A DNA stretch of 64,000 bases from an uncultured Celeribacter sp. (GTDB taxonomy: Bacteria > Pseudomonadota > Alphaproteobacteria > Rhodobacterales > Rhodobacteraceae), in NCBI RefSeq assembly GCF_963676475.2, contig NZ_CAXXQZ010000001.1, positions 875,245 to 939,244 of the forward strand, given 5' to 3'. Position numbers and translations under genes: made by a program. Numbering within the stretch: the stretch's first letter is position 1; every line of letters starts with the position of its first letter. The notes beneath the pieces are model-generated. The model made no database searches. It worked only from the letters and a program-made list of their open reading frames with translations, and was not told where the DNA came from. Positions 28,198-49,058 of the stretch are shown here, in pieces.

Positions 28198-28237
28198 TTT
28201 TCCCATTTCTCTAAAGGGTATTCGTCCCACGTTGGGG

Positions 28238-30158: not shown

Positions 30159-30164
30159 GAAGTC

Positions 30165-32265: not shown

Positions 32266-32271
32266 GGTGAC

Positions 32272-33024: not shown

Positions 33025-33144
33025 TCTAGGGGACTGACCGTGTAAGAGGCGCGATTGAGAGGGAACTTAGGGGGGCATGTGTTAAGACACAATAAGCCCC
33101 CCGTCGTTTTTCAATGCTCTGACGTCTATTTCACGCGTTTGCGT

Positions 33145-34056
33145 TTATTTGGCGGTCAATTCGCAGGCGATTTTGGCCGCAAGCCGCGCGTTGTTGCGCA
33201 CCAATGCGATATTGGCGACCAGAGATTTGCCCTCGGTCAGCTCGAACATACGCTGCAACAGGAAAGGCGTGACCTCTTTCGCGGCGATGCCCTTATCTTC
33301 GGCCTCTTTCAGCGCGGTTTCGACATAGGGCATGATCACTTCGCGCGAAATCTCATCCGCTTCGGGGATCGGGTTGGCCACCAGTTGACCGCCCTTGAGG
33401 CCCATCGCCGCGCGCATCTCCATCGCCGCGGCGATCTCACCCGCGCTGTCCATCCGCAAAGGCGCGGGCAGGCCAGAGGCGCGCGACCAGAACGCCGGGA
33501 TCTCGTCCTGACCATAGGCGATCACCGGCACGCCATGGGTTTCCAGCACTTCGAGCGTCTTCGGAATGTCGAGAATGGCTTTCGGCCCGGCGGCCACCAC
33601 GGTCACGGCCGTCTCGCCCAGCTCGAGAAGGTCGGCGGAGATGTCGAACGTCTCTTCGGCACCGCGATGCACGCCGCCGATGCCGCCGGTGGCAAAGACT
33701 TTGATGCCGGCAATCTGAGCGGCAATCATGGTGGCGGCCACGGTGGTCGCACCTGTGGCGCCGCGCGCGATACAGACTGGCAAATCGGCACGCGACACTT
33801 TCATCACGCCGGTCGCCTGACCGAGTGCGATGAGCTGCGTCTCCGTGAGGCCGATATGAAGCACACCGTCCAGCACCGCGATGGTCGCGGGCACGGCGCC
33901 TGCGGCACGGATGTCCTCTTCGACCGTCTGGGCGGTTTCGACGTTTTGCGGGTAGGGCATGCCATGGGTGATGATCGTGGACTCGAGCGCCACGACGGGA
34001 CGGCCCGCCTCCAGCGCGTCGGCGACTTCGGGGGCATACATCATCGGCAGGGTCAT
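33145..34056 (-). CDS. psuG: Pseudouridine-5'-phosphate glycosidase
   Basis: VALESTIITHGMP, ATTVAAT, FATGGIGGVHRG, DISADL. Confidence 0.95.
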   Translation of the reverse strand: MTLPMMYAPEVADALEAGRPVVALESTIITHGMPYPQNVETAQTVEEDIRAAGAVPATIAVLDGVLHIGLTETQLIALGQATGVMKVSRADLPVCIARGATGATTVAATMIAAQIAGIKVFATGGIGGVHRGAEETFDISADLLELGETAVTVVAAGPKAILDIPKTLEVLETHGVPVIAYGQDEIPAFWSRASGLPAPLRMDSAGEIAAAMEMRAAMGLKGGQLVANPIPEADEISREVIMPYVETALKEAEDKGIAAKEVTPFLLQRMFELTEGKSLVANIALVRNNARLAAKIACELTAK

Positions 34057-34955
34057 AGGGGGGTATCTCCGGAAACATAGTGAGCGGCCGCTTCAAGCGC
34101 CGCGGTCAAAGCGTCGGCGGCATCTGCGCCACGCATTTCGGCGGCAATATGCGCCGCCATGAAAGTGTCGCCCGCGCCGGTCACACGCGCGACCAGAACT
34201 TCGGGCGGGGTATGGGTCAGGACCTCTCCATCGCAGGCAATCGAGGCACCTTTGCCACCGTTGGTGACCAAGACCCGATGCGCGCCACGGTCTTCGACGA
34301 GGACCTTCGCGGCCTCCGCCGAGGTCTCGAATTGGGTCTGCGCCAAGAGGCCAGCCTCTTCGAGGTTGACGTAAAGCGTTGCGCGCGGGTGATCTAGCAG
34401 CGGCAACAACCGCTCGGCCTTGCCGGGTGAGGCGGGGGCCACACGCAGATCGGCCCTGGCAAACAACGGCGACTGCGCAATCTCTCGCAACAATTGTGTC
34501 GTCAGATTACCATCGAGCGCCACCGGGCCCTCGTAAGGTGCATTGACCGTGCCCAGACGCCCGTCGGCCAGAGGCCGCAGGATTTTATCGCCCGCGCGCT
34601 CCAGCGAATGCGCATCCGCGATGGCGGCGATCAAGCCGTTGGCGCCTTCGACGGCCATATAGCTGTCGGTCGGCAGGTCCTCAGAGAGGTAAACGTGATC
34701 CGTACCGATGCCGCGCACTTTCGCCGCCTCGATCAATTCCGCGCCCGCCGGATCGCGCCCGATGGCGGTCAAGAGATCGGGCACCATCCCGAACCGCGCC
34801 AGAGCCATGGCAATATTCATCGCCACACCACCCGGCACCCGCACGATGCGTCCCGGCACGTCGGAGCCCACGCGCATCGAGCGATCCGTGCGTCCGATCA
34901 CGTCCCAAAGCACCGAGCCGATGCAAAGAATGTCATGTGATTTGTCATGATGCAT
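34053..34955 (-). CDS. PfkB family kinase (pseudouridine kinase-like)
   Basis: PGGVAMNIA and VTGAGDTF motifs; coupled to psuG. Confidence 0.85.
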   Translation of the reverse strand: MHHDKSHDILCIGSVLWDVIGRTDRSMRVGSDVPGRIVRVPGGVAMNIAMALARFGMVPDLLTAIGRDPAGAELIEAAKVRGIGTDHVYLSEDLPTDSYMAVEGANGLIAAIADAHSLERAGDKILRPLADGRLGTVNAPYEGPVALDGNLTTQLLREIAQSPLFARADLRVAPASPGKAERLLPLLDHPRATLYVNLEEAGLLAQTQFETSAEAAKVLVEDRGAHRVLVTNGGKGASIACDGEVLTHTPPEVLVARVTGAGDTFMAAHIAAEMRGADAADALTAALEAAAHYVSGDTPL

Positions 34956-35228
34956 TTTATCCATGGGACTATTGCGCCTGTTTTTGACCAAATGGCAAGA
35001 GATGCCGTGCAGGACAGACGGGGCCTTACGTCTCCTTTGCTGTAAAAATACTCAAAGCAACGGCGCAGGAGAGGGCAGGGGTTGCCAAGCCCCACATTCC
35101 TCTCTATATGCGCGATCACTTCACAGGCGGAGGCGGGTCCTCGGGGGAGACATCCTCGAACGATCCACCGGTTGGGGCATATGCCCTGAGACCCTCCGCT
35201 CAGGCGTTAAACCGGAAAGGAAACACGA

Positions 35229-36002
35229 ATGGCGCTTCCCGATTTCTCCATTCGTCAGCTCTTGGAAGCTGGCGTCCACTATGGCCACCAAACTCAGCGT
35301 TGGAACCCGCGTATGCAGGAGTTCATCTACGGTGAGCGCAACGGCATCCACATTTTCGACCTCACCCAGACCGTCCCGATGCTGGACCAGGCTCTGCAGG
35401 TCGTGCGTGACGTTGCTGCCAAAGGCGGCCGTATTCTCTTCGTCGGCACCAAACGTCAGGCTGCTGGCGCCATCGCCGAATCCGCTGAGAAATGTGCACA
35501 GTATTACATGAACCACCGTTGGCTCGGCGGCACGCTGACCAACTGGAAAACCGTCTCCCAGTCGATCCAGCGTCTGAACGCCATTGATGAGACCCTCGCC
35601 TCCGGCGCAGAAGGCCTCACCAAGAAAGAGCGTCTGAACATGGAACGCGACCAAGCCAAGCTGCAAGCTTCGCTCGGTGGTATCCGCGAAATGGGCGGTG
35701 TGCCGGATCTTCTCTTCGTCATCGACGTGAAAAAAGAAGACCTCGCCATCCTCGAAGCCAAGAAACTGGGCATTCCGGTTGTGGCTGTTGTGGACTCCAA
35801 CTGCTCCCCGGCGGGCGTGGACTACATCATCCCGGGCAACGACGACGCGTCCCGCGCGATCTCGCTCTACACCGATCTCGTCGCCCGTGCGGCTCTCGAC
35901 GGCATGACCGCTCAGATGGGTGCAGCCGGCGTGGACATCGGTGCTTTCGAAGAAGCGATCGCTGAAGAAGCCGTCGCAGAAGAAGCATCCGCTGAGGCCT
36001 GA
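35229..36002 (+). CDS. rpsB: 30S ribosomal protein S2
   Basis: [12 protein letters not shown]...RWNP and RWLGGTLTN. Confidence 0.98.
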
Positions 36003-36110
36003 TTTTTTCGACCGTAAGGGACCAAGTCCCGCGCGGTCGTTACAAAATTGATACGGGGGCAGGGTAATCCCGCCCCCGGAACTGATCCAAGACATTCTAG
36101 GAGAGCCGAC

Positions 36111-36986
36111 ATGGCAATCACTGCTGCTCAGGTGAAAGAACTGCGCGAATCCACTGGCGCGGGCATGATGGACGCGAAAAAAGCGCTGGTCGAAACCGAT
36201 GGCGACATGGAAGCCGCCGTTGACTGGCTGCGCACCAAAGGTCTGGCGAAAGCCGCCAAGAAATCCGGTCGTACCGCAGCCGAAGGCCTCGTGGCCGTCG
36301 CTGTGGACGGTGGCGTGGGTGTCGCTGTCGAAGTGAACTCCGAAACCGACTTCGTTGCGAAAAACGCCGAATTCCAGACCATGGTGAAAGACATCGCCGC
36401 GGCCGCTCTGGGCGTGTCCGACGTCGAAGCGCTGAAAGCTGCTGTCGTGAACGGCAAGCCGGTCTCCGAGCTGATCACCGACAAGATCGCCACCATCGGC
36501 GAGAACATGTCCGTGCGTCGCATGGCGAAAATCGAAGCTGACACTGTTGTGACCTACATCCACAACGCAGCGGCTGACGGTCTTGGCAAAATCGGCGTGC
36601 TGGTCGGCCTCAAAGGCGGCGACGAAGCCTTTGGCAAACAGGTTGCGATGCACATCGCGGCGGCCAACCCGCAGGGCCTCGGTGAAGCTGATCTCGACCC
36701 GGCTGTGGTTGAGAAGGAAAAGCAAATCCAGATCGACATCGCCCGCGAATCCGGCAAGCCGGAAAACATCATCGAGAACATGATCAAAGGCCGGATGGCG
36801 AAATTCATCGCCGAATCCACCCTGCTGGGTCAGGCTTTCGTGGTGAACCCGGATCTGACCGTCGAGAAAGCCGCGAAAGAAGCCGGTGCCGAGATCGTCG
36901 GTTTCGTGCGTCTTGAAGTCGGCGAGGGCATCGAGAAAGAGACCGAAGATTTCGCCGCTGAAGTCGCGAAAGCGATGCAGGGCTGA
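36111..36986 (+). CDS. tsf: Elongation factor Ts
   Basis: [29 protein letters not shown]. Confidence 0.98.
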
Positions 36987-37015
36987 TCTGACGTTTCACA
37001 CGTCTGAAAAGGTTC

Positions 37016-37046
37016 AAAGGGGGCTGCCTTCGGGTGGCCCTTTTTC
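37016..37046 (+). terminator. Intrinsic terminator of rpsB-tsf
   Basis: GGGCTGCC-TTCG-GGTGGCCC plus T-run. Confidence 0.8.
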
Positions 37047-37282
37047 ATTTGAAAAGGTGTTTCGATGACAGATTTCCGTGCATCGCATGAAATGATTTTT
37101 AAGCAGGGGAGAGATCAAGGGCCGCAAAGTCGACTATAAACCCGCGACCCTCATGAAGTGTCGGTAAGCCGAATAACGTGGCGATCCCGTCACCCCCGTC
37201 CCAAAGGCCAAGCCTCAGAAAGCCGGAACAGCCCCAATCTGTCTTTCTATTCATATTTGTGCAACTACGCACATCCTTACCT

Positions 37283-37298
37283 TTAACTAAAAATTAAC
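37283..37298. promoter_or_regulatory. Perfect CtrA consensus box
   Basis: TTAA-CTAAAAA-TTAAC. Confidence 0.5.
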
Positions 37299-37351
37299 GA
37301 ATACGGGGTTGAGGTGACGCGAAGTCAACTTATCCGCCAGCGGCAGCTCGG

Positions 37352-38089
37352 TCAGAATGTGAAAATCTGATTATGCATCGCCGCTTTGAGAACGGCCTGT
37401 GCAGTGGTGTCCACACTTAGAGATTCACGCGCGAGTCGAAGATGTTTCTCAACCGTTGCCTTGTTCAGCCCCATGATCTGCGCCGTATCTGCGACGGTTT
37501 TGCCATCGCCGATCCATTCGAGAACCTCACGCTGACGTTTCGTCAAAATGCGCTTGGGCAAGGGCAGGCTGATGAGTTTCAAATGCGCGACACCACAGAT
37601 GAGTTCAAGTTCTTCGCCCCACCGCGCCCAAATCTCATCCGCCTGCTCCTGCGTGCCGACATGCGGTTCTAAAGACAGGCCGATGGCGCCCTTGGCCCGT
37701 TTTAAGGAATGCGGAAACGCGATCGTATATCCGCAGGTCACCCCGGAGGCCTGATTAAAGGCCACCACCTTGCGCTCCTCTTCGGTGAAGGTTTCAAGGT
37801 TTTCACCAATCCAACTCCATGGACAGGCTCCCACATTGTCGATGGACCAACGCACCATGGGCCCGTGACGATACCGCCCCTCCAGAAAATAGCCCTGCAT
37901 ATACTCCGCGCTGAAATTGGTCAGGAACAGATGGTCCTTATCATCGCCAAACCCCGAAGATGTGTGAAACCGCGTGAAGCCGTAGAGAACATGGTGAAAC
38001 CCGATGTCGGTCAAACAGGACAAAAGTGTATCCCAGACCTCTGCAACGGATGTCGCCGCGAGAATGTTATGAACTTGATGTTTCAGCAC
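37352..38089 (-). CDS. LuxR-family regulator with autoinducer-binding domain (no adjacent luxI)
   Basis: C-terminal LTKRQREVLEWIGDGKT...TVEKHL HTH; likely GTG start at 38089 after GGGGGA. Confidence 0.85.
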   Translation of the reverse strand: MLKHQVHNILAATSVAEVWDTLLSCLTDIGFHHVLYGFTRFHTSSGFGDDKDHLFLTNFSAEYMQGYFLEGRYRHGPMVRWSIDNVGACPWSWIGENLETFTEEERKVVAFNQASGVTCGYTIAFPHSLKRAKGAIGLSLEPHVGTQEQADEIWARWGEELELICGVAHLKLISLPLPKRILTKRQREVLEWIGDGKTVADTAQIMGLNKATVEKHLRLARESLSVDTTAQAVLKAAMHNQIFTF

Positions 38090-38377
38090 TTTATCCCCCA
38101 ATACCTCGACCCTAAAAAGAACGGTTGCTGGGCGCAAGATGTCCCATAGGTCAAGAGGGCAACAGCAAGTCGCTTCGATCGCACTCCCGCAAACGCGTTT
38201 ATGGTGATCTGGCTCTGCGTGCTCCCCGTGCAATCAAGGATTTATAGCGGAGATATCGCTCAGCGGTGAATCTTTTCGCGTATGTGGAAACAGATCCAGA
38301 AAAAGCGTTTTAAGGGCATGAAACGACGCGCCAGGCGTGCATAATTACGTCACCACAGATTTCAGGGGACTCACCTC

Positions 38378-39322
38378 ATGCGCAAATCCTGTCACATCCT
38401 TGGCGCGCCGATTGAAACCGGAGCGTCTCAACGCGGCTGCCTCATGGGCCCCGCCAGCCTGCGCACCGCAGGGTTGCCGGAAACGCTCAAAGCGCTTGGA
38501 TGGTCCGTAAAAGACCTTGGCGACGTGGACATCGCGCCCCAGACAGAGCGCCCGCACAGCAACCCGGTGGTACACAATCTCGCGGAAACCCGGGCCTGGA
38601 TCGAGGCCTTGGAGCCGGCGGCCTATGAGGCGGCACGCAATTGCGATCTGCCGATTTTCATGGGGGGCGATCATTCGATGTCGGCGGGCACTGTGACAGG
38701 CGTTGCGCGCGTGGCAGCAGAGGAGGGGCGTCCGCTCTTTGTGCTCTGGCTCGATGCGCACCCGGATTTGCACAGGCTGGACACGACGGAGAGCGGCAAT
38801 TTGCATGGCACGCCGGTGGCCTACTTCACGGGTCAGTTTTCAGATCAGCTTTCGGGGCAGGGCGACTATCCCGCGCTCACACATCCGGTCGATCCGACCC
38901 ACATCTGTTTCATGGGCATCCGCTCGGTCGATCCGGCGGAACATGCGCGGATTCAGGACCTCGATATGGACGTTCACGACATGCGCGCGCTCGATGAAAC
39001 GGGTGTTCTGGCGCCGCTTCGCACCTTTCTGGAGCGGGTCAAGGCGGCGAATGGACGGCTTCATGTCAGTTTCGATGTCGATTTCCTCGACCCCGGCATT
39101 GCGCCCGCCGTCGGCACCACCGTTCCGGGGGGCGCGACCTTTCGCGAAGCGCATCTGATCATGGAAACGCTTTGTGACAGCGGGCTTGTCGGCTCGCTCG
39201 ACCTTGTCGAACTCAACCCGTTTCTTGATGAGCGCGGGCGCACAGCGAAACTGTTACGTGACCTGACGGCAAGCCTGTTCGGGCGTCGTGTCCTTGACCG
39301 AATGACCCGAAGTTTCGGATGA
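38378..39322 (+). CDS. rocF: Arginase
   Basis: GGDHS, DAHPD, HVSFDVD and DLVELNP motifs. Confidence 0.92.
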   Translation: MRKSCHILGAPIETGASQRGCLMGPASLRTAGLPETLKALGWSVKDLGDVDIAPQTERPHSNPVVHNLAETRAWIEALEPAAYEAARNCDLPIFMGGDHSMSAGTVTGVARVAAEEGRPLFVLWLDAHPDLHRLDTTESGNLHGTPVAYFTGQFSDQLSGQGDYPALTHPVDPTHICFMGIRSVDPAEHARIQDLDMDVHDMRALDETGVLAPLRTFLERVKAANGRLHVSFDVDFLDPGIAPAVGTTVPGGATFREAHLIMETLCDSGLVGSLDLVELNPFLDERGRTAKLLRDLTASLFGRRVLDRMTRSFG

Positions 39323-39383
39323 AAATCGCAATAAAAAAGGCCTCCCGGATTGGGAGGCCTTTTCGTGTTTCGAAGCTCTGAGA

Positions 39384-40838
39384 TCAGGTCAACCCGCCGA
39401 AACAGAGGTTCTTGATCTCCAGATAGTCGTCACAACCGTATTTCGAGCCTTCGCGACCCATGCCGGACTGTTTGACCCCGCCAAAGGGTGCCATTTCTGT
39501 CGAAATCGCGCCGGTGTTGATGCCGACCATCCCGGTTTCCAAGGCTTCACCCACACGCCAGGCGCGTTTCAGATCGTTGGTGAAGAAATAGGACGCCAGA
39601 CCGAATTCGGTGGCATTGGCAAACTCCACCGCCTCGTCTTCGGTGTCGAATTTCACCAGCGGCGCGAGAGGGCCAAAGGTTTCCTCGGTGGCGACTTTCA
39701 TCTTTTGCGTCACACCTTTGAGCACGGTCGGTTCAAAGAAGGTCTGCCCGAGGTTCGAGCGATTGCCGCCAACAACCACTTCGGCGCCTTTTTCGACCGC
39801 ATCCTTGATGTGATCCTCGACCTTGGCCACCGCCGCCGCGTTGATCAGCGGGCCGGTGTTGACGCCCTCGGCGAAGCCGTCGCCCAGTTTGAGCGATCCC
39901 AAAGCCGTGGCGAGTTTTTCGGAGAATTCATCATAAATGCCCGCCTGCACGTAAATCCGGTTGGCGCAGACACAGGTCTGGCCGTTATTGCGGAATTTGG
40001 CGAGCATGGCCCCCTCGACCGCCGCCTCCACATCGGCGTCGTCAAAGACGATGAAAGGCGCGTTGCCGCCCAGCTCCATCGACATTTTCTTGACCGTTTC
40101 GGCGCCTTGCGACAGCAGGATTTTGCCCACGCGGGTCGAACCGGTAAAGGTGATCTTGGCCACCTTCGGGTTGGCGCACAACTCTTGCCCCATGCCAGCG
40201 GCATCGAGGCCGGGCAGCACGTTGAACACACCCGCCGGGATGCCCGCACGTTCGGCCAGAACCGCCAGAGCCAGCGCAGACAAGGGCGTGAACTCGGAAG
40301 GCCGCGCCACCATGGAGCAGCCAACGGCAAGGGCAGGGGCCATCTTGCGCGCAATCATCGCATTTGGGAAGTTCCACGGCGTGATCGCACCGACAACGCC
40401 CACGGCTTGCTTGACGATCACCATACGCTTGTCGTTTTGCGGACCGGGGATCATGTCGCCGTAGATGCGCTTGGCCTCTTCCGCGAACCATTCGATGTAA
40501 GACGCGCCATAGAGGATTTCACCACGCGCCTCGGCCCAGGGCTTGCCCATCTCAAGGGTCAGGATGGTCGCCAGATCATCGGCATTTTCCACCATGAGAT
40601 CAAAGAGTTTTCGCAGTGTGTTCGAGCGGGTTTTCACATCCGCGCGCGCCCAGGCCCGTTGCGCCACATAGGCCGCATCAATCGCCATGGCGACGTCTTC
40701 GGCACTCAGATCCGCAACATGGGCGATCACGTCGCCCGTGGCCGGGTTCTCCACCGGGAATGTCTTTTTCGCCTCAACCCAGATGCCATTCACATAGGCG
40801 CGTGTTTCCATCAGGCTGGGGTCTTTCAATGCGCGCAT
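39384..40838 (-). CDS. gabD: NAD(P)-dependent succinate-semialdehyde dehydrogenase
   Basis: PWNFP, MELGGNAPFIVF, KFRNNGQTCVCANR, EETFGP. Confidence 0.92.
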   Translation of the reverse strand: MRALKDPSLMETRAYVNGIWVEAKKTFPVENPATGDVIAHVADLSAEDVAMAIDAAYVAQRAWARADVKTRSNTLRKLFDLMVENADDLATILTLEMGKPWAEARGEILYGASYIEWFAEEAKRIYGDMIPGPQNDKRMVIVKQAVGVVGAITPWNFPNAMIARKMAPALAVGCSMVARPSEFTPLSALALAVLAERAGIPAGVFNVLPGLDAAGMGQELCANPKVAKITFTGSTRVGKILLSQGAETVKKMSMELGGNAPFIVFDDADVEAAVEGAMLAKFRNNGQTCVCANRIYVQAGIYDEFSEKLATALGSLKLGDGFAEGVNTGPLINAAAVAKVEDHIKDAVEKGAEVVVGGNRSNLGQTFFEPTVLKGVTQKMKVATEETFGPLAPLVKFDTEDEAVEFANATEFGLASYFFTNDLKRAWRVGEALETGMVGINTGAISTEMAPFGGVKQSGMGREGSKYGCDDYLEIKNLCFGGLT

Positions 40839-41059
40839 TTTCGTTCTCCCATGCGGCCTTTGCGTCGGCCTTTATTTCGGGTTCGAGATGACCACGGGCG
40901 CAGAGCACGATGTCAGAGGAGCCGCCGCGATGGTCAAGACGCCTCAGTCGAGGCGATGGGCAACGGAGCACATTGGCATAAACACCGCAAGTTAAAACCT
41001 AAATAGCGCCTGCACAGCAGGATGATCGCAAATGCGAAGCGGAGGTGATTGTCCTATTA

Positions 41060-41087
41060 ATTGTACATAATACCAATTATCGGATAT
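41060..41087 (-). other. dif: dif-like XerCD site (attL of the prophage; probable functional chromosomal dif)
   Basis: Minus strand reads ATATCCGATAA-TTGGTA-TTATGTACAAT (11-6-11). The right arm resembles the E. coli XerD arm TTATGTTAAAT, and the site lies at the KOPS polarity switch. Confidence 0.8.
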
Positions 41088-41128
41088 TCCCTAATTACGC
41101 CTTTTCATGATTGCTGCGATTGGCAACC

Positions 41129-41157
41129 AAATAACCAACAATCTTATTAAGGGTCAA
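41129..41157 (-). promoter_or_regulatory. Candidate outward-facing phage promoter at the left end
   Basis: Minus strand TTGACC followed after 17-18 bp by TTATTTG; overlapped by one half of a 10-bp inverted repeat. Confidence 0.3.
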
Positions 41158-41258
41158 GCCTCCTTCAGGTCATTCCTGGCCGGCTCAGAAAACTTAATAA
41201 GAAAAAGCGCCGCCCGATCACCTCGAACGACGCTTTCACATGCCAGCCTAAGCCTCTG

Positions 41259-41468
41259 TTATTGCTCAATTTCAACGGGCGCACGACCCTCCGTGCCGCC
41301 ATAGGCCGAAAGACCGATCCCGGCCACGGCAATCAGAGCCTCGCGCCAGAGATCAATGGTTTCCGCGCCAACTTCGATACCTTGCGAAGCCAGCCACGTT
41401 GCAAGCGCGGTCATGAATGCGCCGATGATCGCGGCCAAGACTTTGCGTGTAAGAAACGCCGTAAGCAT
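41259..41468 (-). CDS. Phage small two-TM protein, holin-like
   Basis: 69 aa, two hydrophobic segments, last gene of the lysis end. Confidence 0.6.
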   Translation of the reverse strand: MLTAFLTRKVLAAIIGAFMTALATWLASQGIEVGAETIDLWREALIAVAGIGLSAYGGTEGRAPVEIEQ

Positions 41469-41483
41469 ATGATTTTCCCCCTT

Positions 41484-41618
41484 TTAAGCGTTTTCGAGTT
41501 TACCAAGGCGCGCCGAAAAATCGTCGTGCGCCTTGGTGAGACCGCCGAGGCGGTAAAAGATCGCGGCCAAGACCGTGAATTGCCCGATGTCGAGGGCGGC
41601 GGCGAGATCGAACGTCAC
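41484..41618 (-). CDS. Phage small single-TM protein (holin/lysis accessory), GTG start
   Basis: VTFDLAAALDIGQFTVLAAIFYRLGGLTKAHDDFSARLGKLENA; GTGA overlap with the upstream stop. Confidence 0.55.
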   Translation of the reverse strand: MTFDLAAALDIGQFTVLAAIFYRLGGLTKAHDDFSARLGKLENA

Positions 41619-41794
41619 TTGATCGCCCCCGCCGATTTGAGCGCCTGATAGGAGATGTATACGCCGCCCGCGACGGTTGCCCATTTGAGCGCTTTAGCGG
41701 TGCTGTCCATTGCCTCGCCGCCCTCTTTCGCGGCCCATCCGACACCAAAAACTCCGAGAATTGCCAAGCCAACGCCAACAACAGGAAATGCCAT
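41615..41794 (-). CDS. Phage small two-TM membrane protein
   Basis: MAFPVVGVGLAILGVFGVGWAAK...WATVAGGVYISYQALK; starts 2 nt after the lysozyme stop. Confidence 0.6.
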   Translation of the reverse strand: MAFPVVGVGLAILGVFGVGWAAKEGGEAMDSTAKALKWATVAGGVYISYQALKSAGAIK

Positions 41795-41795
41795 A

Positions 41796-42536
41796 TCAAA
41801 TCCCCCGAATTGCATTGATGATCGAACCGACGCCGACCAGAGCTTTATTGAGACCGTCACCGGCATAATAGGAGCTTCCCGCGCTCGAACCTGTCACCAC
41901 CGGAAGCGATGCCCACTCCCGCGCCAGATTGTTTGCGAACTGCGTCTCAGTGATCCGTCCAGACTGGTAATCGGACAGCCCGCGCCGCTCCATCAGGGCC
42001 ACGGCAAGACGGTCCTGAAGCTCAGGCGTGAACAGGTCGCTTTTGCGTGCATAACCGGCGTTCACAAGGTCATTGAGCGTCTTGCGAAGGAACTGATACC
42101 GGCCCGCCGCACTGGATGCGGACCCGGCGGCAATGCTTTGTCTCTGCCAGTCCAGCACCTCGCCCACGGTCATTTGCGTGAGCGGCTTCGGTGTCGCGAT
42201 CTTGGAGCCGCCATAGACCTGATTATAGCCTTGCGGAGCCTCTACCCCGCCAATGAGCCCCAGAAGACCTGATAGGCCGCTTGAACTCATTTGCGGCGAA
42301 CCATAGGACGTACTCGGAGCGGTGCTGCCAGAGCTTTGACCGCCTTTCCCAAACAGGCCTGAGAGCGCATCGACAATCCCGAGTGCGGCGGTGATTTTCG
42401 CCGCCGTGTTGTCCGGTTTCGGTTGCTCAACATAGACGACCTTCTGGGAATGCTCAGAGGATGCGCCGCGCTTGGAAAAGGCCCAGAACGCAACGCCCGT
42501 GATCCCCGCAAGAATGACTGCACCAAACTCAGACAT
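41796..42536 (-). CDS. Membrane-anchored lambda-lysozyme-like muramidase/lytic transglycosylase
   Basis: N-terminal TM, Ser/Gly linker, then E-x4-YN...SAAGRYQF...EWASLP lambda-R-type motifs; real start MSEFG at 42536. Confidence 0.8.
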   Translation of the reverse strand: MSEFGAVILAGITGVAFWAFSKRGASSEHSQKVVYVEQPKPDNTAAKITAALGIVDALSGLFGKGGQSSGSTAPSTSYGSPQMSSSGLSGLLGLIGGVEAPQGYNQVYGGSKIATPKPLTQMTVGEVLDWQRQSIAAGSASSAAGRYQFLRKTLNDLVNAGYARKSDLFTPELQDRLAVALMERRGLSDYQSGRITETQFANNLAREWASLPVVTGSSAGSSYYAGDGLNKALVGVGSIINAIRGI

Positions 42537-43155
42537 GGACCACCTCGTCCGCAAATGCCAGCGCGGTAGGCTCTTCCGAATTTGCGTAGACCGCTGCGCC
42601 GCCCAGAATTTCCACAGTTTGGCCCGGTTGAGCCACAACCGTTGCGTATTTCGAGACCCGTGCGCCCGTGGTCGCATAGAAATAGATCGCGCTGGTTTCA
42701 GAGGCGTTTCGGAAAATCGCCTTTTGGCGCATATCATCAATCGGCATGACCTGCTCCACCGTCGAAGAAATAAAGGCCATGTTGTTGATGTATTCGATAC
42801 CGTCAGCCCCAGAGATAACGCCGCCGATGTCGAAGGGACGCATTTGCAGCTTTTCGCGGGTCTCGATTGCTCCCAGAGCTGCAAACCGACCATCACGGAC
42901 GCCGCCACGACCAAAACCAAGCGTCACGATTATCGTTTCGTCAGTCGGGTTGATTATGCGGACGCTATCGAAATCGGCCTCTGAGGTGTATGTGAGGCCC
43001 TTCTGGAACCCGGTTTCCGGGGCCTCCCCGATCTGCACCTTGAAAGGCTTCGTGGCCTCAAGGCAGGACAGAAAATCAGAGCGGCGCGGGACGTTGTGCG
43101 ACTGACCCGGCGCCAGTGTCCAGGTGCTTTCTTGGTAGAACGGTTTTTTGGTCAT
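42529..43155 (-). CDS. Putative penton/spike protein (PM2 P1-like position, beta-rich)
   Basis: All-beta pattern; QVMPIDDMRQKAIFRN and QPGQTVEI resemble recalled PM2 P1 domain II segments; syntenic slot. Confidence 0.55.
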   Translation of the reverse strand: MTKKPFYQESTWTLAPGQSHNVPRRSDFLSCLEATKPFKVQIGEAPETGFQKGLTYTSEADFDSVRIINPTDETIIVTLGFGRGGVRDGRFAALGAIETREKLQMRPFDIGGVISGADGIEYINNMAFISSTVEQVMPIDDMRQKAIFRNASETSAIYFYATTGARVSKYATVVAQPGQTVEILGGAAVYANSEEPTALAFADEVVHV

Positions 43156-43943
43156 TTGAGTACCTGTGCAATGAGAATGAGAGCTATGGCCGGGACGCCG
43201 ATCCGAATGAGCTGCGTGGATAGCTGGGTGCTGTCCTCTTGGCTTTTTTCAAGGGTGGATGCGAAGGCCCCTGAGAGCTGGTCAAGAGACTGCCCTGCGA
43301 ATTTATAGGCGTCCTCTCGCGCCCCCTCTGCAAAGGACAGAGCGTCACCTGTTGCCCCCACCACCTCGTCCAGCGATGTTTGGGCAAAATTGAATGCGTC
43401 ATTGCCAAATCCGACCACGTCAGAAAGCGCACGCTCCCCAAAGTTCAGGCTTTCGGAAAGGGCCTCTTGCGAAAGGTCGATCCCCTGCCCGGCCAAATCC
43501 ACACTGTCCGCAAATCGGTCATTCGATAGGCGCACCGCATCAGAGGCGAAATCGAAGGCCTCGCGCTGCGCATCATTGACCAAGTCATAAGCGCCACTTT
43601 GAGCGTCACCGGCGAAATCGAAGGCTTCGCGCTGCGATCCGTCCGCAAAATCCAGCGCGTCTGAAACTGCACCGCCTGCCACATCAAGACCTTGCTGCCC
43701 GAGATCATAACCGCCATAGGCAACTTCGTCGGCCAGCGAAAAGGCACTGTCTGCGGCCTCATTGATCGCGTCAGCAAAAGCCTCGCCCAGAGATACGGCC
43801 TCACCGCTCGTTTGGTTAATCACCACATCACCACCGGCGCGCGTAACGACAGAGCCAGCATCCGCCGCGACCCGTTCGTCATAGGTGTTGTAGTTGGTTT
43901 GCGTTGTGTTCGTGCTGCGAGAGCTACCGCCGAAAAGACCCAT
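43152..43943 (-). CDS. Membrane/DNA-delivery protein with 11/22-residue repeats (PM2 P10-like position)
   Basis: N-terminal MGLFGG and Ser/Thr run, DAQREAFDFA repeats, C-terminal TM. Confidence 0.6.
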   Translation of the reverse strand: MGLFGGSSRSTNTTQTNYNTYDERVAADAGSVVTRAGGDVVINQTSGEAVSLGEAFADAINEAADSAFSLADEVAYGGYDLGQQGLDVAGGAVSDALDFADGSQREAFDFAGDAQSGAYDLVNDAQREAFDFASDAVRLSNDRFADSVDLAGQGIDLSQEALSESLNFGERALSDVVGFGNDAFNFAQTSLDEVVGATGDALSFAEGAREDAYKFAGQSLDQLSGAFASTLEKSQEDSTQLSTQLIRIGVPAIALILIAQVLK

Positions 43944-43970
43944 ATTAACGCCCGTTTTTGGTTATGAAGT

Positions 43971-43992
43971 GACGCCCGCATTTGCGGGCGTC
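43971..43992. repeat. Perfect intergenic inverted repeat in the structural operon
   Basis: GACGCCCGCA-tt-TGCGGGCGTC. Confidence 0.85.
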
Positions 43993-43996
43993 CCGA

Positions 43997-44185
43997 TCAC
44001 TTTTTGACGATGAACCAGATTGCGACCGCCGCGACGATCACAGGCGCAAGCGTCTGGAGCCACCCCACCGAACCGGACGACCCTTTAAAGGCAAAATCGC
44101 CGGTCGCAGCGGCCCCGCCGCCAGAGGTTGCCATGCCGTCCGCCGAGGCGTGGCCACCGGACAGGCTTAGGTTTGGGAGTGTCAT
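43997..44185 (-). CDS. Small Gly/Ser-rich membrane protein (PM2 P8-like)
   Basis: 62 aa after AGGAG RBS; Gly-rich, ends LAPVIVAAVAIWFIVKK. Confidence 0.65.
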   Translation of the reverse strand: MTLPNLSLSGGHASADGMATSGGGAAATGDFAFKGSSGSVGWLQTLAPVIVAAVAIWFIVKK

Positions 44186-44250
44186 TCCGCTATCTCCTGT
44201 CGTTTGAGCTGCGGTCGTGGTCGGTGGCCTTCGCGGCGAGGTTGGCGCAA

Positions 44251-44673
44251 TCACTTCTTGGCAATGAAGTAGACAGCGCCAACGGCAAGAGCGCCCATCA
44301 GGATCAGAGACGGAGAAATCCCCCCGCTCTCGCCCTGCGTCTGATAGGCAACCGGCGTCACCTGCCCGTCCCCCGTGCTGCCCATGTACCCGAGAACCGC
44401 CGTGGCAACGTTCGTCAGGCCCGACAATGTCGAGGACGTACCGTCGACCGACGGGGCGGGAACAACGGTGCTGCCCGATCCGCCGATGTTGTCCGGCCCC
44501 ATGTTCTGGATCGGCGTTCCCATCGACAGACTTGCCATGAAGCTGTCCATATCTTGCGTCCACCCCCAAACAGGGTCCGTTTTCGGGATGTTCGATCCAT
44601 AGGAGAGCTGCGCGCCGGTGCTGTACGGATTACCGACAGTCGGCGCGCCCCCTCCTCCGAAAGAAAGTGCCAT
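44251..44673 (-). CDS. Virion membrane protein (PM2 P3-like)
   Basis: Directly follows the MCP; low complexity, C-terminal TM plus KK. Confidence 0.65.
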   Translation of the reverse strand: MALSFGGGGAPTVGNPYSTGAQLSYGSNIPKTDPVWGWTQDMDSFMASLSMGTPIQNMGPDNIGGSGSTVVPAPSVDGTSSTLSGLTNVATAVLGYMGSTGDGQVTPVAYQTQGESGGISPSLILMGALAVGAVYFIAKK

Positions 44674-44688
44674 ATTGAGACCTCCGTT

Positions 44689-45504
44689 TTAGGTTGACGT
44701 CGCCGGGCTGCGCATCGAGACCGAATAGATTTTGAAGTTCGTACCGGGCGCGGTGAAATCGAGTTTCACGCGGAAGTCGCGGAGGGTCATGGGCAGAACC
44801 TCGCCAAGGCGATTTTCGCTCATGAAGTCGATATGCGTGAAGCCGATCTGCGGAGCGCGGCCAGCAACGGACAGGTGCGCATTGCGGAGAACTTCGTCGC
44901 TTTCATGCACCTTCACGTTGTTGGTCAGCACCTCGACCTTGTCGATGTCATCCGATGTCACATGCAGGCCGAGAAGGTTGAAAGCGCCTTTGGGCAGGTC
45001 TGCAATTTCCTTGGTCCCCGCAAGGCCCATCTGGTCGGAGAAGCGCTGAATGCGCAAATGACCCGCGAAAGCGCGCGGCTCGGATTGCACCGCATAAACG
45101 GACAGCTCATTGACGGTAATGCCGTTTTTCAGGTCCATTTCAAGCGTCATGGTCGCGACGCCGGAGCCGGTGCCGTAAGCCGTGTTGTCCTCGCCCGCCA
45201 AGGTCCGCGCCCACGGCTGGGACAGGAATAACGGAAGAACGCCAGCGGACATTTCTTGTCCGTAATAAAGATTAAGAGAAACGAGGTCAGCCGCGTCAAT
45301 CTCGATCTTGGTTTCACCGTTCACCATCAGGCGAATCTCGCCGATATAGGCGCCCCAGTTGGCAACCTCAACATCACGCGGCGTCACGTTCACATTCATG
45401 CGGACATTGAGCCGGTGATAGGTCGGACCGATGGGCAGGTTTACGATTGCGGTTTGACCCGCGCCGATGCCCTGCGGGGTCGGCATTTTTTCGATACGGC
45501 GCAT
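44689..45504 (-). CDS. Double-jelly-roll major capsid protein (PM2 P2-like)
   Basis: 271 aa; LPIGPTY, KEIADLP, IDFMSE and DFRVKLD match recalled PM2 P2 motifs (LPIGQTY, TEIADLP, IDFMLE, DLRLKID). Confidence 0.88.
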   Translation of the reverse strand: MRRIEKMPTPQGIGAGQTAIVNLPIGPTYHRLNVRMNVNVTPRDVEVANWGAYIGEIRLMVNGETKIEIDAADLVSLNLYYGQEMSAGVLPLFLSQPWARTLAGEDNTAYGTGSGVATMTLEMDLKNGITVNELSVYAVQSEPRAFAGHLRIQRFSDQMGLAGTKEIADLPKGAFNLLGLHVTSDDIDKVEVLTNNVKVHESDEVLRNAHLSVAGRAPQIGFTHIDFMSENRLGEVLPMTLRDFRVKLDFTAPGTNFKIYSVSMRSPATST

Positions 45505-45529
45505 TTTTTGCTCCTGTGTTGGTGTCGGA

Positions 45530-45652
45530 TCAGCCGAAGCCGCGTTTGGCGTCGGAAACGATGCCGATGTCTTCGAATTGGTTCATCAGAAAGCCAGCGG
45601 CGACAACGCCAGCCATGACCAGCGCCACAAGTTTGAGGTCGGTTTTTTTCAT
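45530..45652 (-). CDS. Small single-TM protein (PM2 P7-like position)
   Basis: MKKTDLKLVALVMAGVVAAGFLMNQFEDIGIVSDAKRGFG, immediately before the MCP. Confidence 0.65.
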   Translation of the reverse strand: MKKTDLKLVALVMAGVVAAGFLMNQFEDIGIVSDAKRGFG

Positions 45653-45768
45653 GCGTAAAAGCCCGTTTGTTGAGGTTGCGGGGCGGTCTCCGCGCGGCGC
45701 GTAATGTACCAAACGGCCAGCCCGGAAAGGACTGACGCGGCCACGGTCAAAGCGAATGTTTTGGACAA
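45649..45768 (-). CDS. Small single-TM protein, TTG start (absent from the ORF track)
   Basis: MSKTFALTVAASVLSGLAVWYITRRAETAPQPQQTGFYA; AGGGG RBS; ATGA overlap with the next gene. Confidence 0.6.
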   Translation of the reverse strand: MSKTFALTVAASVLSGLAVWYITRRAETAPQPQQTGFYA

Positions 45769-45775
45769 GAGAAAA

Positions 45776-45851
45776 CCCCTGTTTTCGGTTGAGAACAGGG
45801 GAAGCATGACGGGGTTTCTGCGGGCGCTCGACTTAACGTAGCGAACGCCCG
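45776..45851. promoter_or_regulatory. Two stem-loops between the ATPase and structural genes
   Basis: CCCCTGTTTTC/GAGAACAGGGG (covers the RBS) and CGGGCGCTCG/CGAACGCCCG. Confidence 0.5.
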
Positions 45852-45884
45852 TAGCGTAGCGTTATGAATTGCGCTTTTTGTCGA

Positions 45885-46601
45885 TTAGGCGCGTTTTTTC
45901 CGTTTCGGCGCGGAATTGTCGTTTGCCGCCGGTGGCAAGTTGGTGTTTGCCGGTTTCGGTTTTGCAGCGCTCCGGCCAAAGGTGATCTTGCCGCGTTCGA
46001 TCTTGCCCGCCTTCTCGTGCAGGTAGTGCAGATTTTCCGCCGGAAGATCGGAGACCCGGACGCCCAATTCCGCCGCCGCCGCCTGTTTGTCGCGCGGCCC
46101 CTTTTGGCGAAACACCACAGTTTCGGTGCAGTTGCCACGGAACCGCGTGTCAACCTCTGCGAGCCGCTGAGAGACGCCCACGACCTCAATCCCGAAGTGG
46201 CGACCACGGGAACAGATTTCCGCAAAGCCGGGGCATTTCTGCGCGCCCCCGGCGACCGGGAAAGCCATGTTCATTTCTTCGACCACAAGCGTGAGCTGGT
46301 CGCCCTGCCCCGTGTCCTTAAAAGGCTGTTGCGCCATCATCAGGAGCTTGCAGAGCGCGGAGAGGCTTTTCGTCTCCGCACCCGGTCGCGGGACGTAAGA
46401 AACCCGGAACTTGTTCCAGCTCTTGCGCATCCCGATGCGCACCCCGTCGAGATCGCGCACAGATTGCCCGCCGTACTCGTCCAGCGGGTCGAAGATCACG
46501 ACGCGGCGTTTCGGCTTAACGTAGCGCTTTGTAAAGGCGGATTTGCCGGACCCGGACGCCCCCCAGACGCCCAAGCGGCCCGCGTTGCTCGAAGCGCTCA
46601 T
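45885..46601 (-). CDS. FtsK-HerA/A32-like genome packaging ATPase (PM2 P9-like)
   Basis: GASGSGKS Walker A, LVVEE Walker B, SRGRHFG arginine finger, VSQR sensor. Confidence 0.9.
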   Translation of the reverse strand: MSASSNAGRLGVWGASGSGKSAFTKRYVKPKRRVVIFDPLDEYGGQSVRDLDGVRIGMRKSWNKFRVSYVPRPGAETKSLSALCKLLMMAQQPFKDTGQGDQLTLVVEEMNMAFPVAGGAQKCPGFAEICSRGRHFGIEVVGVSQRLAEVDTRFRGNCTETVVFRQKGPRDKQAAAAELGVRVSDLPAENLHYLHEKAGKIERGKITFGRSAAKPKPANTNLPPAANDNSAPKRKKRA

Positions 46602-47164
46602 GCCGCTTCCTCGTCCGCATTCATGGGCGGCGCATCGACGTTTGCGGCCTCCGGCGTTCGGCTGCTCTTGAAGCTGCCCTCTGGTGCCTCGACCGTCGCG
46701 GCCTTCGCCTTCCGCCGCTCGATCAGAATGGCCCGCACAGCGCCGGTTTGCATGATCAGGAAAGGCGTCATTCGCATGATCGCCGCAAAGGTGTCATTGC
46801 TCGCCAACAGGATTGACGGGAAGTACATTTCACAGAGATTATAAGCGGCGTCTGCCGCATCCGCGAAAGGCTCTTCCTTCTCGTCGGTGATCGCAAGCGG
46901 TTTGAAGTCAGGAAGCATCATCCCCGGCATGTTGAACGACAGGCGGAAGACAGCGGCGAAGGCTTCGCGGCTCATGCGCTCCGGCTCAATCTGACCGGCC
47001 AGCGGCTCCCCGTCCTCCCCAATCTGGATAGGATCATCGTCCGCGAAGGTCTCCCCGTCGATGTCGGGCGCGCGGAAGCTGTCGAGGTGCGCGCCCGGAT
47101 CGGAGCTGGTCACGGCCTCCGGTGCGTTCATATCGTCAAAATTCAGATCAGTATCCGTAGTCAT
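46598..47164 (-). CDS. Phage protein with acidic N-terminus, coupled to the ATPase
   Basis: 188 aa, D/E-rich first 60 residues; ATGA overlap with the ATPase. Confidence 0.65.
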   Translation of the reverse strand: MTTDTDLNFDDMNAPEAVTSSDPGAHLDSFRAPDIDGETFADDDPIQIGEDGEPLAGQIEPERMSREAFAAVFRLSFNMPGMMLPDFKPLAITDEKEEPFADAADAAYNLCEMYFPSILLASNDTFAAIMRMTPFLIMQTGAVRAILIERRKAKAATVEAPEGSFKSSRTPEAANVDAPPMNADEEAA

Positions 47165-47540
47165 TGAGCGTGTCCCCCGCTTTACGTTTCGTTACGGGTG
47201 CGCGGTCGTCGTTCGCGGTCTCCGGCTTATTAACGGGCGTATCGCTACGCGGTGCGGCGCTTGGCGCGGCGTTGGTGTTCGCGGCCACCATGGGCGCGGG
47301 TGCGATGCCTTCGCGGCGGTGATAATCGGCCCGTATCGCCTCCGATTTCACCGCGCCCCAGCGGACGCCAAAACCGCAGCTCTGGCCCTGCGCGTCGAAG
47401 TTTCCGCAGTTGTAATATGCTTTGCCGGAGACGTTGATTTTGACCTGAACACGCCCCCCACAACAGGCGCACTTGTCGATCCGAACAACGGTCCCTTGTG
47501 GCAAAGGAAACGGACGCGGGCGGCGTTGTTTGTCGCTCAT
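47148..47540 (-). CDS. Zinc-ribbon protein, putative late transcription activator
   Basis: CxxC...YYNC-x9-CGF; start MSDKQ at 47540. Confidence 0.65.
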   Translation of the reverse strand: MSDKQRRPRPFPLPQGTVVRIDKCACCGGRVQVKINVSGKAYYNCGNFDAQGQSCGFGVRWGAVKSEAIRADYHRREGIAPAPMVAANTNAAPSAAPRSDTPVNKPETANDDRAPVTKRKAGDTLNDYGY

Positions 47541-47776
47541 GATGCACCCCCAACGCGTAGCGAAGCGCGGTTTGCTTCCCACGCCTCCAAAACCTGTTCT
47601 TGGTGCGCCTCAACCTCTTCGGGCGTCATGATGCGGACGCCGAAAAGGTCTTGGCCGGGATAGGCGGCGCGGAACCGGGCGCGGGCGTCCTTCGGGCTGT
47701 TGGCCGCGATCATGTGGGACCGTGCGCCCAGCTCACCGACAAGGGCCGAGACGCGATAGCGGGTTTTCGTGGTCAT
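47537..47776 (-). CDS. Phage hypothetical protein
   Basis: 79 aa, overlapping start/stop with both neighbours. Confidence 0.6.
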   Translation of the reverse strand: MTTKTRYRVSALVGELGARSHMIAANSPKDARARFRAAYPGQDLFGVRIMTPEEVEAHQEQVLEAWEANRASLRVGGAS

Positions 47777-47952
47777 TGCGCCACCTCCCCGGCCATGGCG
47801 TCGATCCGCGCGGCCATTTTCTCCATCACGTCCAGCGTGTCCGTCACGAGGTCGATCACCTCGCCCGGTTTTGTGGCGAGCATCATGGGGGATTTCTTCG
47901 CCAGATCGGCGGCGCGGTCGCGCAGCATCCGCGTTTCGTCTTTGAGTTGCAT
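47773..47952 (-). CDS. Phage hypothetical helical protein
   Basis: MQLKDETRMLRDRAADL...; RBS GAAGGG; translationally coupled. Confidence 0.6.
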   Translation of the reverse strand: MQLKDETRMLRDRAADLAKKSPMMLATKPGEVIDLVTDTLDVMEKMAARIDAMAGEVAQ

Positions 47953-48419
47953 TTCGGGTGACCCTTCGTGGTTAACGTGCAGGGAAGGTAACCAGATACC
48001 ACCACACGCCAACCCAAAAAAAACAAAAAACGCCTCAGGGGCCGTTTACAGGCGCTCTAAGGCGTTTTGGGTGCCGTGGTCACAAAAAGGCCCTATCGCC
48101 TCCCCTGCCCCCGCTGTGCGTCCAGTTTGCGGCCATTCTGTTCTTCCCCCGTACCTCCCCCGTTCCATCAGCCGGAACAAACGGCGGCAATTCTGGGGCG
48201 AAATTTTCAACCCTTCCCCAATTCATGGCGGGCCGAAGGCCCTCAATATCCCGGCCTCTCTCCCGCATGGCGCTCACCCGTACCGGCCCTCTCAACCCGC
48301 ACCCAACGCTGCGCCATGCCTTCCGCCGTCCCTCTCCACCCCGCACTTTATCAACTTGTTCCCCGACTAGGGGAACGCCTCATATCGTTGGTTCCTTTGG
48401 GAACCATGGAGGGGGGGGT

Positions 48420-48484
48420 AAATATTCACCCCCTTTTGGGGGAAATTTTCACCCCCTTTATCACTAAATTTTCACCCCCTTTAT
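48420..48484. repeat. Three iteron-like direct repeats with exact 23-bp phasing
   Basis: AAA(T/A)TTTCACCCCCTTT at 48420, 48443 and 48466 (the last two identical over 19 bp); degenerate copy at 48201. Confidence 0.85.
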
Positions 48485-48500
48485 TAATCCTGACAGAAAG

Positions 48501-48509
48501 TTATCCACA
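48501..48509 (+). promoter_or_regulatory. DnaA box next to the iterons
   Basis: Perfect TTATCCACA. Confidence 0.75.
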
Positions 48510-48515
48510 GGCACG

Positions 48516-48538
48516 AAAAAGCCCGCCGGGTGGCGGGC
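48516..48538 (-). terminator. Intrinsic terminator of the rep operon
   Basis: GCCCGCC-gggt-GGCGGGC followed by T5 on the minus strand. Confidence 0.75.
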
Positions 48539-48566
48539 CTATCTCTGTCGGCTGGTCTCGATGTCC

Positions 48567-49058
48567 CTAAAACGTTTCTGGGTTTTCAGGGTCGCCCATG
48601 ATCTCTAGGGCCTTAGACGGCCCGTATTTGCCGCGCAGGAAGCGCCATGTTGCTTCCCTGTCCCGGTTGGTCTCCATGACCTCCATTTGATCGTCTGACG
48701 GTGATTTTTCCTTGCCGGGGACGGTCAAAAGCCATGTGGTCGGCACCTTGCGCCCGCCCTGCCAGTTTTTCATGGGCTTTAGGCTTCCTTCATTGCGCAG
48801 AAAGCGGACGGACGTTCTAACCGTGTCATAGCAACACCCGGCGTCAGCCATGAGTTGTTCTTTTGTGATCGTGACGACCGGCCTATGAAAATCTGCCTTA
48901 TTCCACATGGCCTCTAAAACAAGTCTCTGCGCCAACTTGGCTTTGGTGTTCAAAAAGGCGGCTTTTCTGGTCCGGCGGGTAGCGGCGCAAGCTGATCTGT
49001 ATTCGGCCTCATTTGCGAATCCTGCGCGCTGCCATTTTGGGGCTCTTTTTGTCGTCAT
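48567..49058 (-). CDS. Winged-helix protein, putative replication initiator
   Basis: ITKEQLMADAGCCYDTVRTSVRFLRNEGSL HTH plus wing (GGRKVPTTW); directly adjacent to the iterons and DnaA box. Confidence 0.6.
   Translation of the reverse strand: MTTKRAPKWQRAGFANEAEYRSACAATRRTRKAAFLNTKAKLAQRLVLEAMWNKADFHRPVVTITKEQLMADAGCCYDTVRTSVRFLRNEGSLKPMKNWQGGRKVPTTWLLTVPGKEKSPSDDQMEVMETNRDREATWRFLRGKYGPSKALEIMGDPENPETF

Follow-up and report, generated by a model that had tools for sequence, protein, structure and literature searches.

[quoted passage not shown] This question is raised by two dif-like sites, attL and attR, which lie in a stretch of 64,000 nucleotides (from here on the window; C1:875245-939244) of a genome of 3.91 Mb in two contigs. 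An earlier reading of the sequence alone had listed the sequences of both sites, an identical core and the coordinates of a shared segment, and all of these were re-read exactly as given (Table 1). The two sites have the same orientation and bracket exactly a block of PM2-like genes. They share the 10-bp segment TACCAATTAT, the two copies of which are spaced by 8386 bp, and the identity stops after these 10 bp. The phage core and the host core are identical in six of six bases. Because the window contains 6626 pairs of identical 10-mers, 551 of them 7-10 kb apart, the 10-bp direct repeat alone is not significant; it is the dif context that gives it significance.

This context was evaluated by means of a weight matrix; the 16 dif sites used for it came from other Celeribacter species, with the genome of the window excluded. 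The full-site score of attL was 43.9 bits, the top value in the whole 3.9-Mb genome. A half-matrix covering the XerC arm plus the core yielded 29.1 bits for attR and 26.9 bits for attL, the top two of approximately 7.8 million positions. With the full matrix attR reached only 24.6 bits. Since this value is below the half-site score, the XerD arm of attR adds less than nothing. The phage XerD arm CTACGGTAAAA matches the host arm in 5 of 11 positions, and its contribution to the matrix score is about -4.5 bits. Given this degenerate arm, binding of XerD to attP is uncertain.

Table 1: Features of the window, attachment sites of related elements and occurrences of relevant motifs. Positions refer to the window unless another sequence is named.
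Feature	Position	Strand	Remarks
gabD (succinate-semialdehyde dehydrogenase)	39384-40838	minus	host flank on the XerD-arm side
attL	41060-41087	minus	XerC arm ATATCCGATAA (phage-supplied), core TTGGTA, XerD arm TTATGTACAAT (host)
Shared 10-bp segment TACCAATTAT, left copy	41071-41080		minus strand reads ATAA plus core TTGGTA
Prophage body, 8.36 kb	41088-49445	minus	all genes on one strand; C1:916332-924689
Intrinsic terminator	41203-41237	minus	15-bp stem plus T run, strong; about 115 bp before the phage XerC arm
Lysin	41796-42920	minus	phrog_90 endolysin, E=7e-26, residues 191-367
Double-jelly-roll major capsid protein, 271 aa	44689-45504	minus	Pfam P2_N, P2_C; phrog_8536
Packaging ATPase	45885-46601	minus	Walker A GASGSGKS; phrog_2666, E=3e-25
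Three tandem 23-bp repeats GGGGnAAATnTTCACCCCCTTTn, iteron-like	48415-48509	plus	degenerate copy at 48196-48218
163-aa protein	48567-49058	minus	4-nt overlap with the HTH gene; weak PHROG match to transcriptional regulator
75-aa HTH protein	49055-49282	minus	first gene past the phage XerD arm; weak HTH_38 and MarR matches
attR, hybrid site	49446-49473	minus	host XerC arm TTATCTTATAA, core TTGGTA, degenerate phage XerD arm CTACGGTAAAA
Shared 10-bp segment TACCAATTAT, right copy	49457-49466		
XRE-cupin regulator	49530-50174	minus	host flank on the XerC-arm side; Pfam HTH_3 and Cupin_2
GGGNAGGG in the window prophage	43483, 46303, 48103, 48211		other elements counted: L053, L086, L091, L096, L085, L083
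C. baekdonensis LH4 element, flanking sites			AAGTCTTATAA-TTGGTA-TTATGTATAAT and TAATCCTATAA-TTGGTA-TTACTTCCAAC; ancestral genus flanks on both sides
L086			attR (HTH end) ACATCCCATAA-TCAGTA-GTATGCATACT; attL/dif (holin end) AAATCGCATAA-TCAGTA-TTATGTAAAAT
Thioclava nitratireducens L091			attR (HTH end) AATACCTATAA-TCGGTA-TGATGTTAAGT; attL/dif (holin end) CAGGCCGATAA-TCGGTA-TTATGTAAATT
L096			attR (HTH end) GACTCCCATAA-TCAGTA-CTATGTAAGGA; attL/dif (holin end) AATACTCATAA-TCAGTA-TTATGTAAATA
dif with ATATCCGATAA arm, G006	L044 19945-19972		
dif with ATATCCGATAA arm, C. naphthalenivorans	L099 917-944		

attL is the working and unique dif of the host; it lies at the replication terminus, the point on which KOPS-like motifs converge. 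In contig C1, the cumulative GC skew has its maximum in a plateau at about 870-912 kb and declines from approximately 37-41 kb of the window. The GC skew of the second contig is monotonic, and therefore this contig probably belongs to the same replichore. The KOPS-like octamer GGGNAGGG exhibited a polarity of 122:4 to the left and 6:89 to the right of attL within 500 kb; within 200 kb the counts were 55:0 and 3:36, respectively. On the plus strand the ratio is 37:0 from -56 kb up to window position 40331, and all copies from position 43483 to about 104 kb are found on the minus strand. The strand thus changes between 40331 and 43483, and consequently the polarity switch falls on attL. A pattern search of the genome revealed no other credible dif. 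Moreover, 17 of 32 other species of Celeribacter have exactly one genomic copy of ATAA-TTGGTA-TTATGTAtAAT, and a reversed control pattern gave a single match. The dif consensus of the genus is wwnTCYKATAA-TTGGTA-TTATGTATAAT. The claim of the sequence-only reading that a complete dif is left at attL is therefore backed by the top matrix score, the turn of the GC skew, the KOPS switch and the conservation in the genus.

The state of the locus before integration was found in prophage-free relatives. An exact-protein look-up with the flanking XRE-cupin regulator retrieved eight Logan contigs (public assemblies), none of which carries the prophage. The regulator encoded on these contigs is identical to that of the window, and gabD (Aldedh) follows 305 bp after it. 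All eight contigs contain the spacer ...CTA-TTATCTTATAA-TTGGTA-TTATGTATAAT-TAA.... An empty dif of the sequence TTATCTTATAA-TTGGTA-TTATGTACAAT had been predicted between gabD and the XRE-cupin gene, and 27 of its 28 bases match. The deviating base is position 8 of the XerD arm (T vs C), a C/T polymorphism among strains; just outside the XerD arm, in the same stretch, the strains differ as well. In three long contigs, 12-20 kb can be aligned with the window at 97-99% identity, and the alignments break at positions 41080 and 49454 of the window and overlap by 13 bp. The prophage body is absent from the conspecific contigs, and both flanks of the empty site are continuous. Thus, the conspecific empty site fixes TTATCTTATAA as the XerC arm of the host and ATATCCGATAA as that of the phage. 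From the empty site, attL and attR we infer that the attP of the prophage is ATATCCGATAA-TTGGTA-CTACGGTAAAA, with the HTH gene on one side and the lysis-end terminator on the other.

Between the two sites the genes are arranged in the order HTH, wHTH, origin, small ORFs, ATPase, capsid, membrane and spike proteins, lysin, TM proteins and terminator. The 75-aa HTH gene has a counterpart with 53% identity in the element of C. baekdonensis LH4 (tblastx). For the adjacent 163-aa protein no Pfam match was obtained; its position, like that of Gp2 of phage Jorvik, makes it a candidate replication initiator. The motif TTATCCACA is the only DnaA box in the 64-kb window and is found 18 bp after the 23-bp repeats, near the 163-aa wHTH gene. 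Repeats and DnaA box together form a putative iteron-type origin. The capsid protein scored 73.9 bits with P2_N (E=1.2e-20) and 67 bits with P2_C (E=1.8e-18), both above the gathering score (cut-off 25). These two domains are the two jelly rolls of PM2 P2, and the capsid protein together with an A32/FtsK-HerA-type ATPase is the combination by which the order Vinavirales is recognized. The C-terminal part of the lysin (about 180 aa) is lysozyme- or transglycosylase-like, and its true start codon probably lies downstream of the listed one. The terminator ends the phage transcription unit. All genes of the prophage are intact and collinear with those of relatives, including free genomes of 8.3 kb.

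No integrase, serine recombinase or transposase was detected in the element by Pfam and PHROG scans of all ORFs of at least 69 aa. Six-frame searches of the genome with XerC and XerD models revealed nine tyrosine-recombinase-like places, none of them inside the element. A sub-threshold match to Zn_ribbon_recom (E=4.9e-4) was obtained for a 144-aa ORF (47148-47582). The XafT/DUF3653 activator gave no match even at E<=5 among the small ORFs of the element; a factor that resembles XafT in structure and has diverged in sequence may nevertheless be present. The host possesses a Xer machinery of its own. A XerD-like gene at C1:826823-827719 scored 316 bits with the XerD model vs 256 bits with the XerC model, and a XerC-like gene at C1:2048760-2049644 scored 313 bits with the XerC model vs 237 bits with the XerD model. 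FtsK is present with alpha, motor and gamma domains.

Related elements were compared with respect to their attachment sites. There are 97 homologues of the capsid protein, many of them in Rhodobacterales and in marine metagenomes, and several are encoded on contigs of 8.3-9 kb. Searches for the capsid protein itself gave no match, neither in IMG/VR by peptide patterns nor by exact protein look-up. The exact attP core had four matches in IMG/VR, all unrelated to the window and thus attributable to chance, and the exact 24-nt attP had no match in JGI metagenomes. Within Celeribacter the capsid protein occurs in only one other of 33 species, C. baekdonensis LH4 (G041, CP028475). The capsid gene of this genome is located at 863754-864554, and the supplement of the Jorvik paper has an entry at 863748-864554; G041 was identified as LH4 because these coordinates match. 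The LH4 prophage, which the Jorvik authors retrieved by PSI-BLAST, is among the 849 prophages of that supplement (PMC10589892). Its element is collinear with the prophage of the window, encodes a capsid protein with 57% identity and sits on the XerC side of dif.

In the relatives L086, L091 and L096 (Table 1), in L095 and L085 and in Jorvik, XerC arm and core agree with dif in all cases, and the XerD arm of the phage is degenerate to a variable degree. The Thioclava prophage lies between the genes for phosphoglucomutase and quinone oxidoreductase beside cbb genes, which is also the reported locus of the Jorvik attB. The ENA metagenome scaffold L095 carries a tandem prophage array with sites at 6669-6696 and 16581-16608. 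The attP between its copies, AATACTCATAA-TCAGTA-CTATGTAAGGA, is intact and consists of the XerC arm of attL and the XerD arm of attR. The sequence-only reading had composed attP of just these two arms, and in this relative the site is observed as such. L095 thereby validates the model of arm exchange within the phage family. On the free 8328-bp contig L085 the attP TTCGCGCATAA-TCAGTA-CTATGATCAAT is found between the terminator at the holin end and the HTH gene. Both ends of this contig fall into the same gene; consequently it represents a circularly permuted, non-integrated genome. Among the free circular relatives the closest one is L084 (JGI, 8315 bp, 55-bp terminal overlap), the capsid protein of which has 76% identity. 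No recognisable dif-like site was found in its spacer between holin and HTH gene. Targeting of dif may thus not be universal in the capsid-protein family, and attachment sites may differ within the lineage. As a separate observation, L096 contains an attP-type site (12357-12384) and a dif (12556-12583) only 199 bp apart; this arrangement looks like the remnant of a second copy or a mini-element.

From the arrangement of the sites we infer that XerCD catalysed the integration of the prophage. The phage genome would be a circular double-stranded molecule whose attP combines a good XerC arm and a degenerate XerD arm with a 6-bp core that is the same as in the host. XerC and XerD of the host would recombine this attP with the chromosomal dif TTATCTTATAA-TTGGTA-TTATGTAYAAT, with the crossover inside ATAA-TTGGTA. 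On the gabD side a complete dif, composed of the phage XerC arm and the host XerD arm, would be regenerated at the point where the FtsK-orienting motifs converge. Since the regenerated dif would still be positioned at the KOPS convergence, resolution of chromosome dimers would be preserved. The XRE-cupin side would receive a crippled hybrid site, in which the XerC arm comes from the host and the XerD arm from the phage.

Other explanations of the same sites have to be weighed against this one. The phage might possess a recombinase of its own that escaped recognition and uses dif as a conserved safe site, so that XerCD would not be needed. Several ORFs of the element have no family assignment, and the weak resemblance of the 144-aa ORF to Zn_ribbon_recom, although below the cut-off, would fit such an enzyme. 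However, no frame of the element yielded a catalytic domain of the tyrosine-recombinase, serine-recombinase or transposase type, and attP retains precisely what Xer requires, namely a XerC arm ending in ATAA and the 6-bp core. In the relatives the phage core equals the core of the host dif each time, irrespective of whether this is TTGGTA, TCAGTA or TCGGTA, and the integrase-less relatives Jorvik and NO16 show the same pattern. A recombinase of the phage is on these grounds very unlikely. A different assignment of the arms would make attL an untouched ancestral dif of the host and attR no product of recombination at all. It derives from the dif of G006 (the MAG Celeribacter sp. EC02-03), whose XerC arm, like that of C. 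naphthalenivorans, is ATATCCGATAA and thus the same as the arm adjacent to the prophage. This reading is refuted by the empty sites of the conspecific contigs, which join TTATCTTATAA to TTATGTATAAT with both flanks continuous; moreover, a host XerC arm left attached to phage DNA is impossible under the geometry of the Xer reaction. The probability of swapped arms is practically negligible.

The repeats could also match by chance and the element could be a decayed, immobile remnant. In favour of this reading are the abundance of identical 10-bp pairs in the window and the searches for the phage, which turned up no free copy that matches it exactly. Against it stand the scan with XerC arm plus core, in which attL and attR ranked highest among 7.8 million positions, the presence or absence of the element with base-precise borders among genomes of 97-99% identity, and the intact genes with their order conserved up to the free genomes. 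We regard chance and decay as extremely unlikely. The region 41088-49445 is very probably an intact temperate tailless DJR phage of the PM2/Jorvik type, order Vinavirales, that acts as an IMEX.

The terminus itself showed further peculiarities. A block of 13 kb extending from dif over gabD to window position 28063 (28063-41087) is inverted relative to six other Celeribacter species, as judged by comparison with L044/L045 (G006), L046-L053 and L058/L059. The order in these six species is L - dif - XRE2 - gabT - gabD - S - R, with the XRE-cupin gene following S. Both gabT and the second XRE-cupin gene (XRE2), which are adjacent to dif elsewhere, are missing in the species studied here. The inversion has one endpoint immediately at the XerC side of dif, and the KOPS polarity is therefore kept. 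The other junction is occupied by about 900 bp that are unrelated and contain one ORF (27162-28062). Among the dif-like sites of the genome, the one at C2:790959-790986 ranks second (27.8 bits, ATGACTGATAA-TTCGTC-TTATGTATAGT); it has a good XerD arm and a different core. It is intergenic and lies where skew and KOPS are reversed locally (about 738-790 kb); the second contig of the genome G005 contains a similar site.

In the two nearest species all 11 bases of the dif XerC arm ATATCCGATAA are those of the phage arm (window 41077-41087). No phage remnant was found beside the dif of G006 or G001. The identity could go back to earlier IMEX turnover in which a phage arm stayed behind in dif, or to adaptation of the phage to those hosts. 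The LH4 phage and the sister species of LH4 differ by one base in their XerC arms. Furthermore, the octamer GGGNAGGG was counted in seven phage genomes of the family, where 28 copies point toward the regenerated dif and one points away; this polarity is confounded, and partly explained, by the skew of all G-rich octamers to the coding strand. GGGNAGGG is 2-3 times commoner in the phage genomes than most permuted G-rich controls. It is conceivable, though rather improbable, that the lineage supplies the XerC arm of the working dif and carries GGGNAGGG copies that lead FtsK through the prophage to the regenerated site. If this were true, turnover of the elements would rewrite the termini of Celeribacter, namely the XerC arm and the flank on its side, and it may be linked to the dif-anchored 13-kb inversion.

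Among the closest known counterparts is Jorvik, a phage of Rhodobacter capsulatus without integrase, for which dif-like attP and attB sites were described and integration by XerCD was proposed in 2023 (PMC10589892; GenBank OP588643). Like the prophage of the window, as judged here from its genes, Jorvik has a circular dsDNA genome of about 8.4-8.8 kb, contains a membrane, possesses a DJR capsid and lacks an integrase. Its Gp1, the HTH protein of the lysis-lysogeny decision, takes the same position as the 75-aa HTH gene, with attP directly upstream and a short replication protein next. The annotated attP of Jorvik reads (GAG)TCCGATAA-TCAGTA-TTTAGG... and is followed by a 74-aa HTH gene and then a short replicase. 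As in the attP of the prophage, a good XerC arm and core are combined with a degenerate XerD arm. The similarity of the proteins is very low, with 22.5% identity for the P9 ATPase (E=1e-8) and only 63 aa of the capsid protein aligned (E=1e-4). The packaging module of Jorvik is inverted, whereas all genes of the Celeribacter prophage are on one strand. The Jorvik attB was called 'similar to dif motifs', with a variable location (PMC10589892). In contrast, KOPS, GC skew and conservation in the genus show the attB described here to be a true dif.

Use of XerCD and dif was also proposed in 2023 for the non-tailed vibriophages NO16/'Asemoviridae' (PMC9966536), and 160 curated 'dif-type' DJR prophages of Vibrio were designated IMEXs in 2025 (PMC12715192). 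The attP sites of the latter may be full-length, 'left-armed' or 'right-armed' (17 bp), and tandem arrays are formed (PMC12715192). The attP deduced here corresponds to the 'left-armed' form. These prophages resemble the one in the window in being integrase-less and PM2-like and in having dif-like attL and attR sites, one junction of which regenerates dif; tandem arrays are shared with the relative L095. They differ in their gammaproteobacterial hosts and in a gene pair of P16/RstR and a P15/XafT-like protein that flanks attP, whereas the prophage studied here has only the terminator on one side of attP and no XafT/DUF3653 signal. The capsid identity to the Vibrio phages is at most about 31%.

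A similar design of attP is known outside the DJR phages. TLCphi of Vibrio cholerae, reportedly a satellite of a filamentous phage, is said in the work of Midonet et al. of 2014 and 2019 to have an attP in double-stranded form, in which a proper XerC arm and a degenerate XerD arm surround a core that equals that of dif. Its integration reportedly leaves a working dif, and it is said to encode XafT (DUF3653), an activator of XerD. The prophage matches the attP design of TLCphi with full core homology and a degenerate XerD arm, whereas XafT of TLCphi was not detected here. PM2 of Pseudoalteromonas belongs to the same size class as the prophage and likewise has a P2-type capsid protein and a packaging ATPase, and the genes of its structural module follow the same order. 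Unlike the temperate prophage, PM2 is lytic, and its replication protein is a large one of the rolling-circle type. In a survey of corticoviral prophages from 2007, integrases or transposases were reported for several elements and XerCD was mentioned only as the precedent of CTXphi (PMC1950889).

The sequence-only reading had counted inoviruses, their satellites and genomic islands as the described IMEXs, a list that has been out of date since the first DJR examples of 2023. It had also considered a membrane-containing DJR IMEX to be notable, and in this point it was overtaken by phages already published (PMC9966536, PMC10589892, PMC12715192). The Celeribacter prophage is a clean case of a DJR-phage IMEX in a marine alphaproteobacterium and opens no new category. 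What is new is a modest addition: an attB proven to be a genuine dif, a base-precise empty site and a family-wide table of att sites with an observed attP. The XerCD proposal made for Jorvik is strengthened, with attB, attL and attR observed and the attP of the prophage deduced from them. The 'left-armed' attP, in which XerC arm and core are good and the XerD arm is degenerate, recurs across a lineage of Rhodobacterales phages, which consequently is a candidate system for studying the activation of Xer on sites of this type in Alphaproteobacteria.
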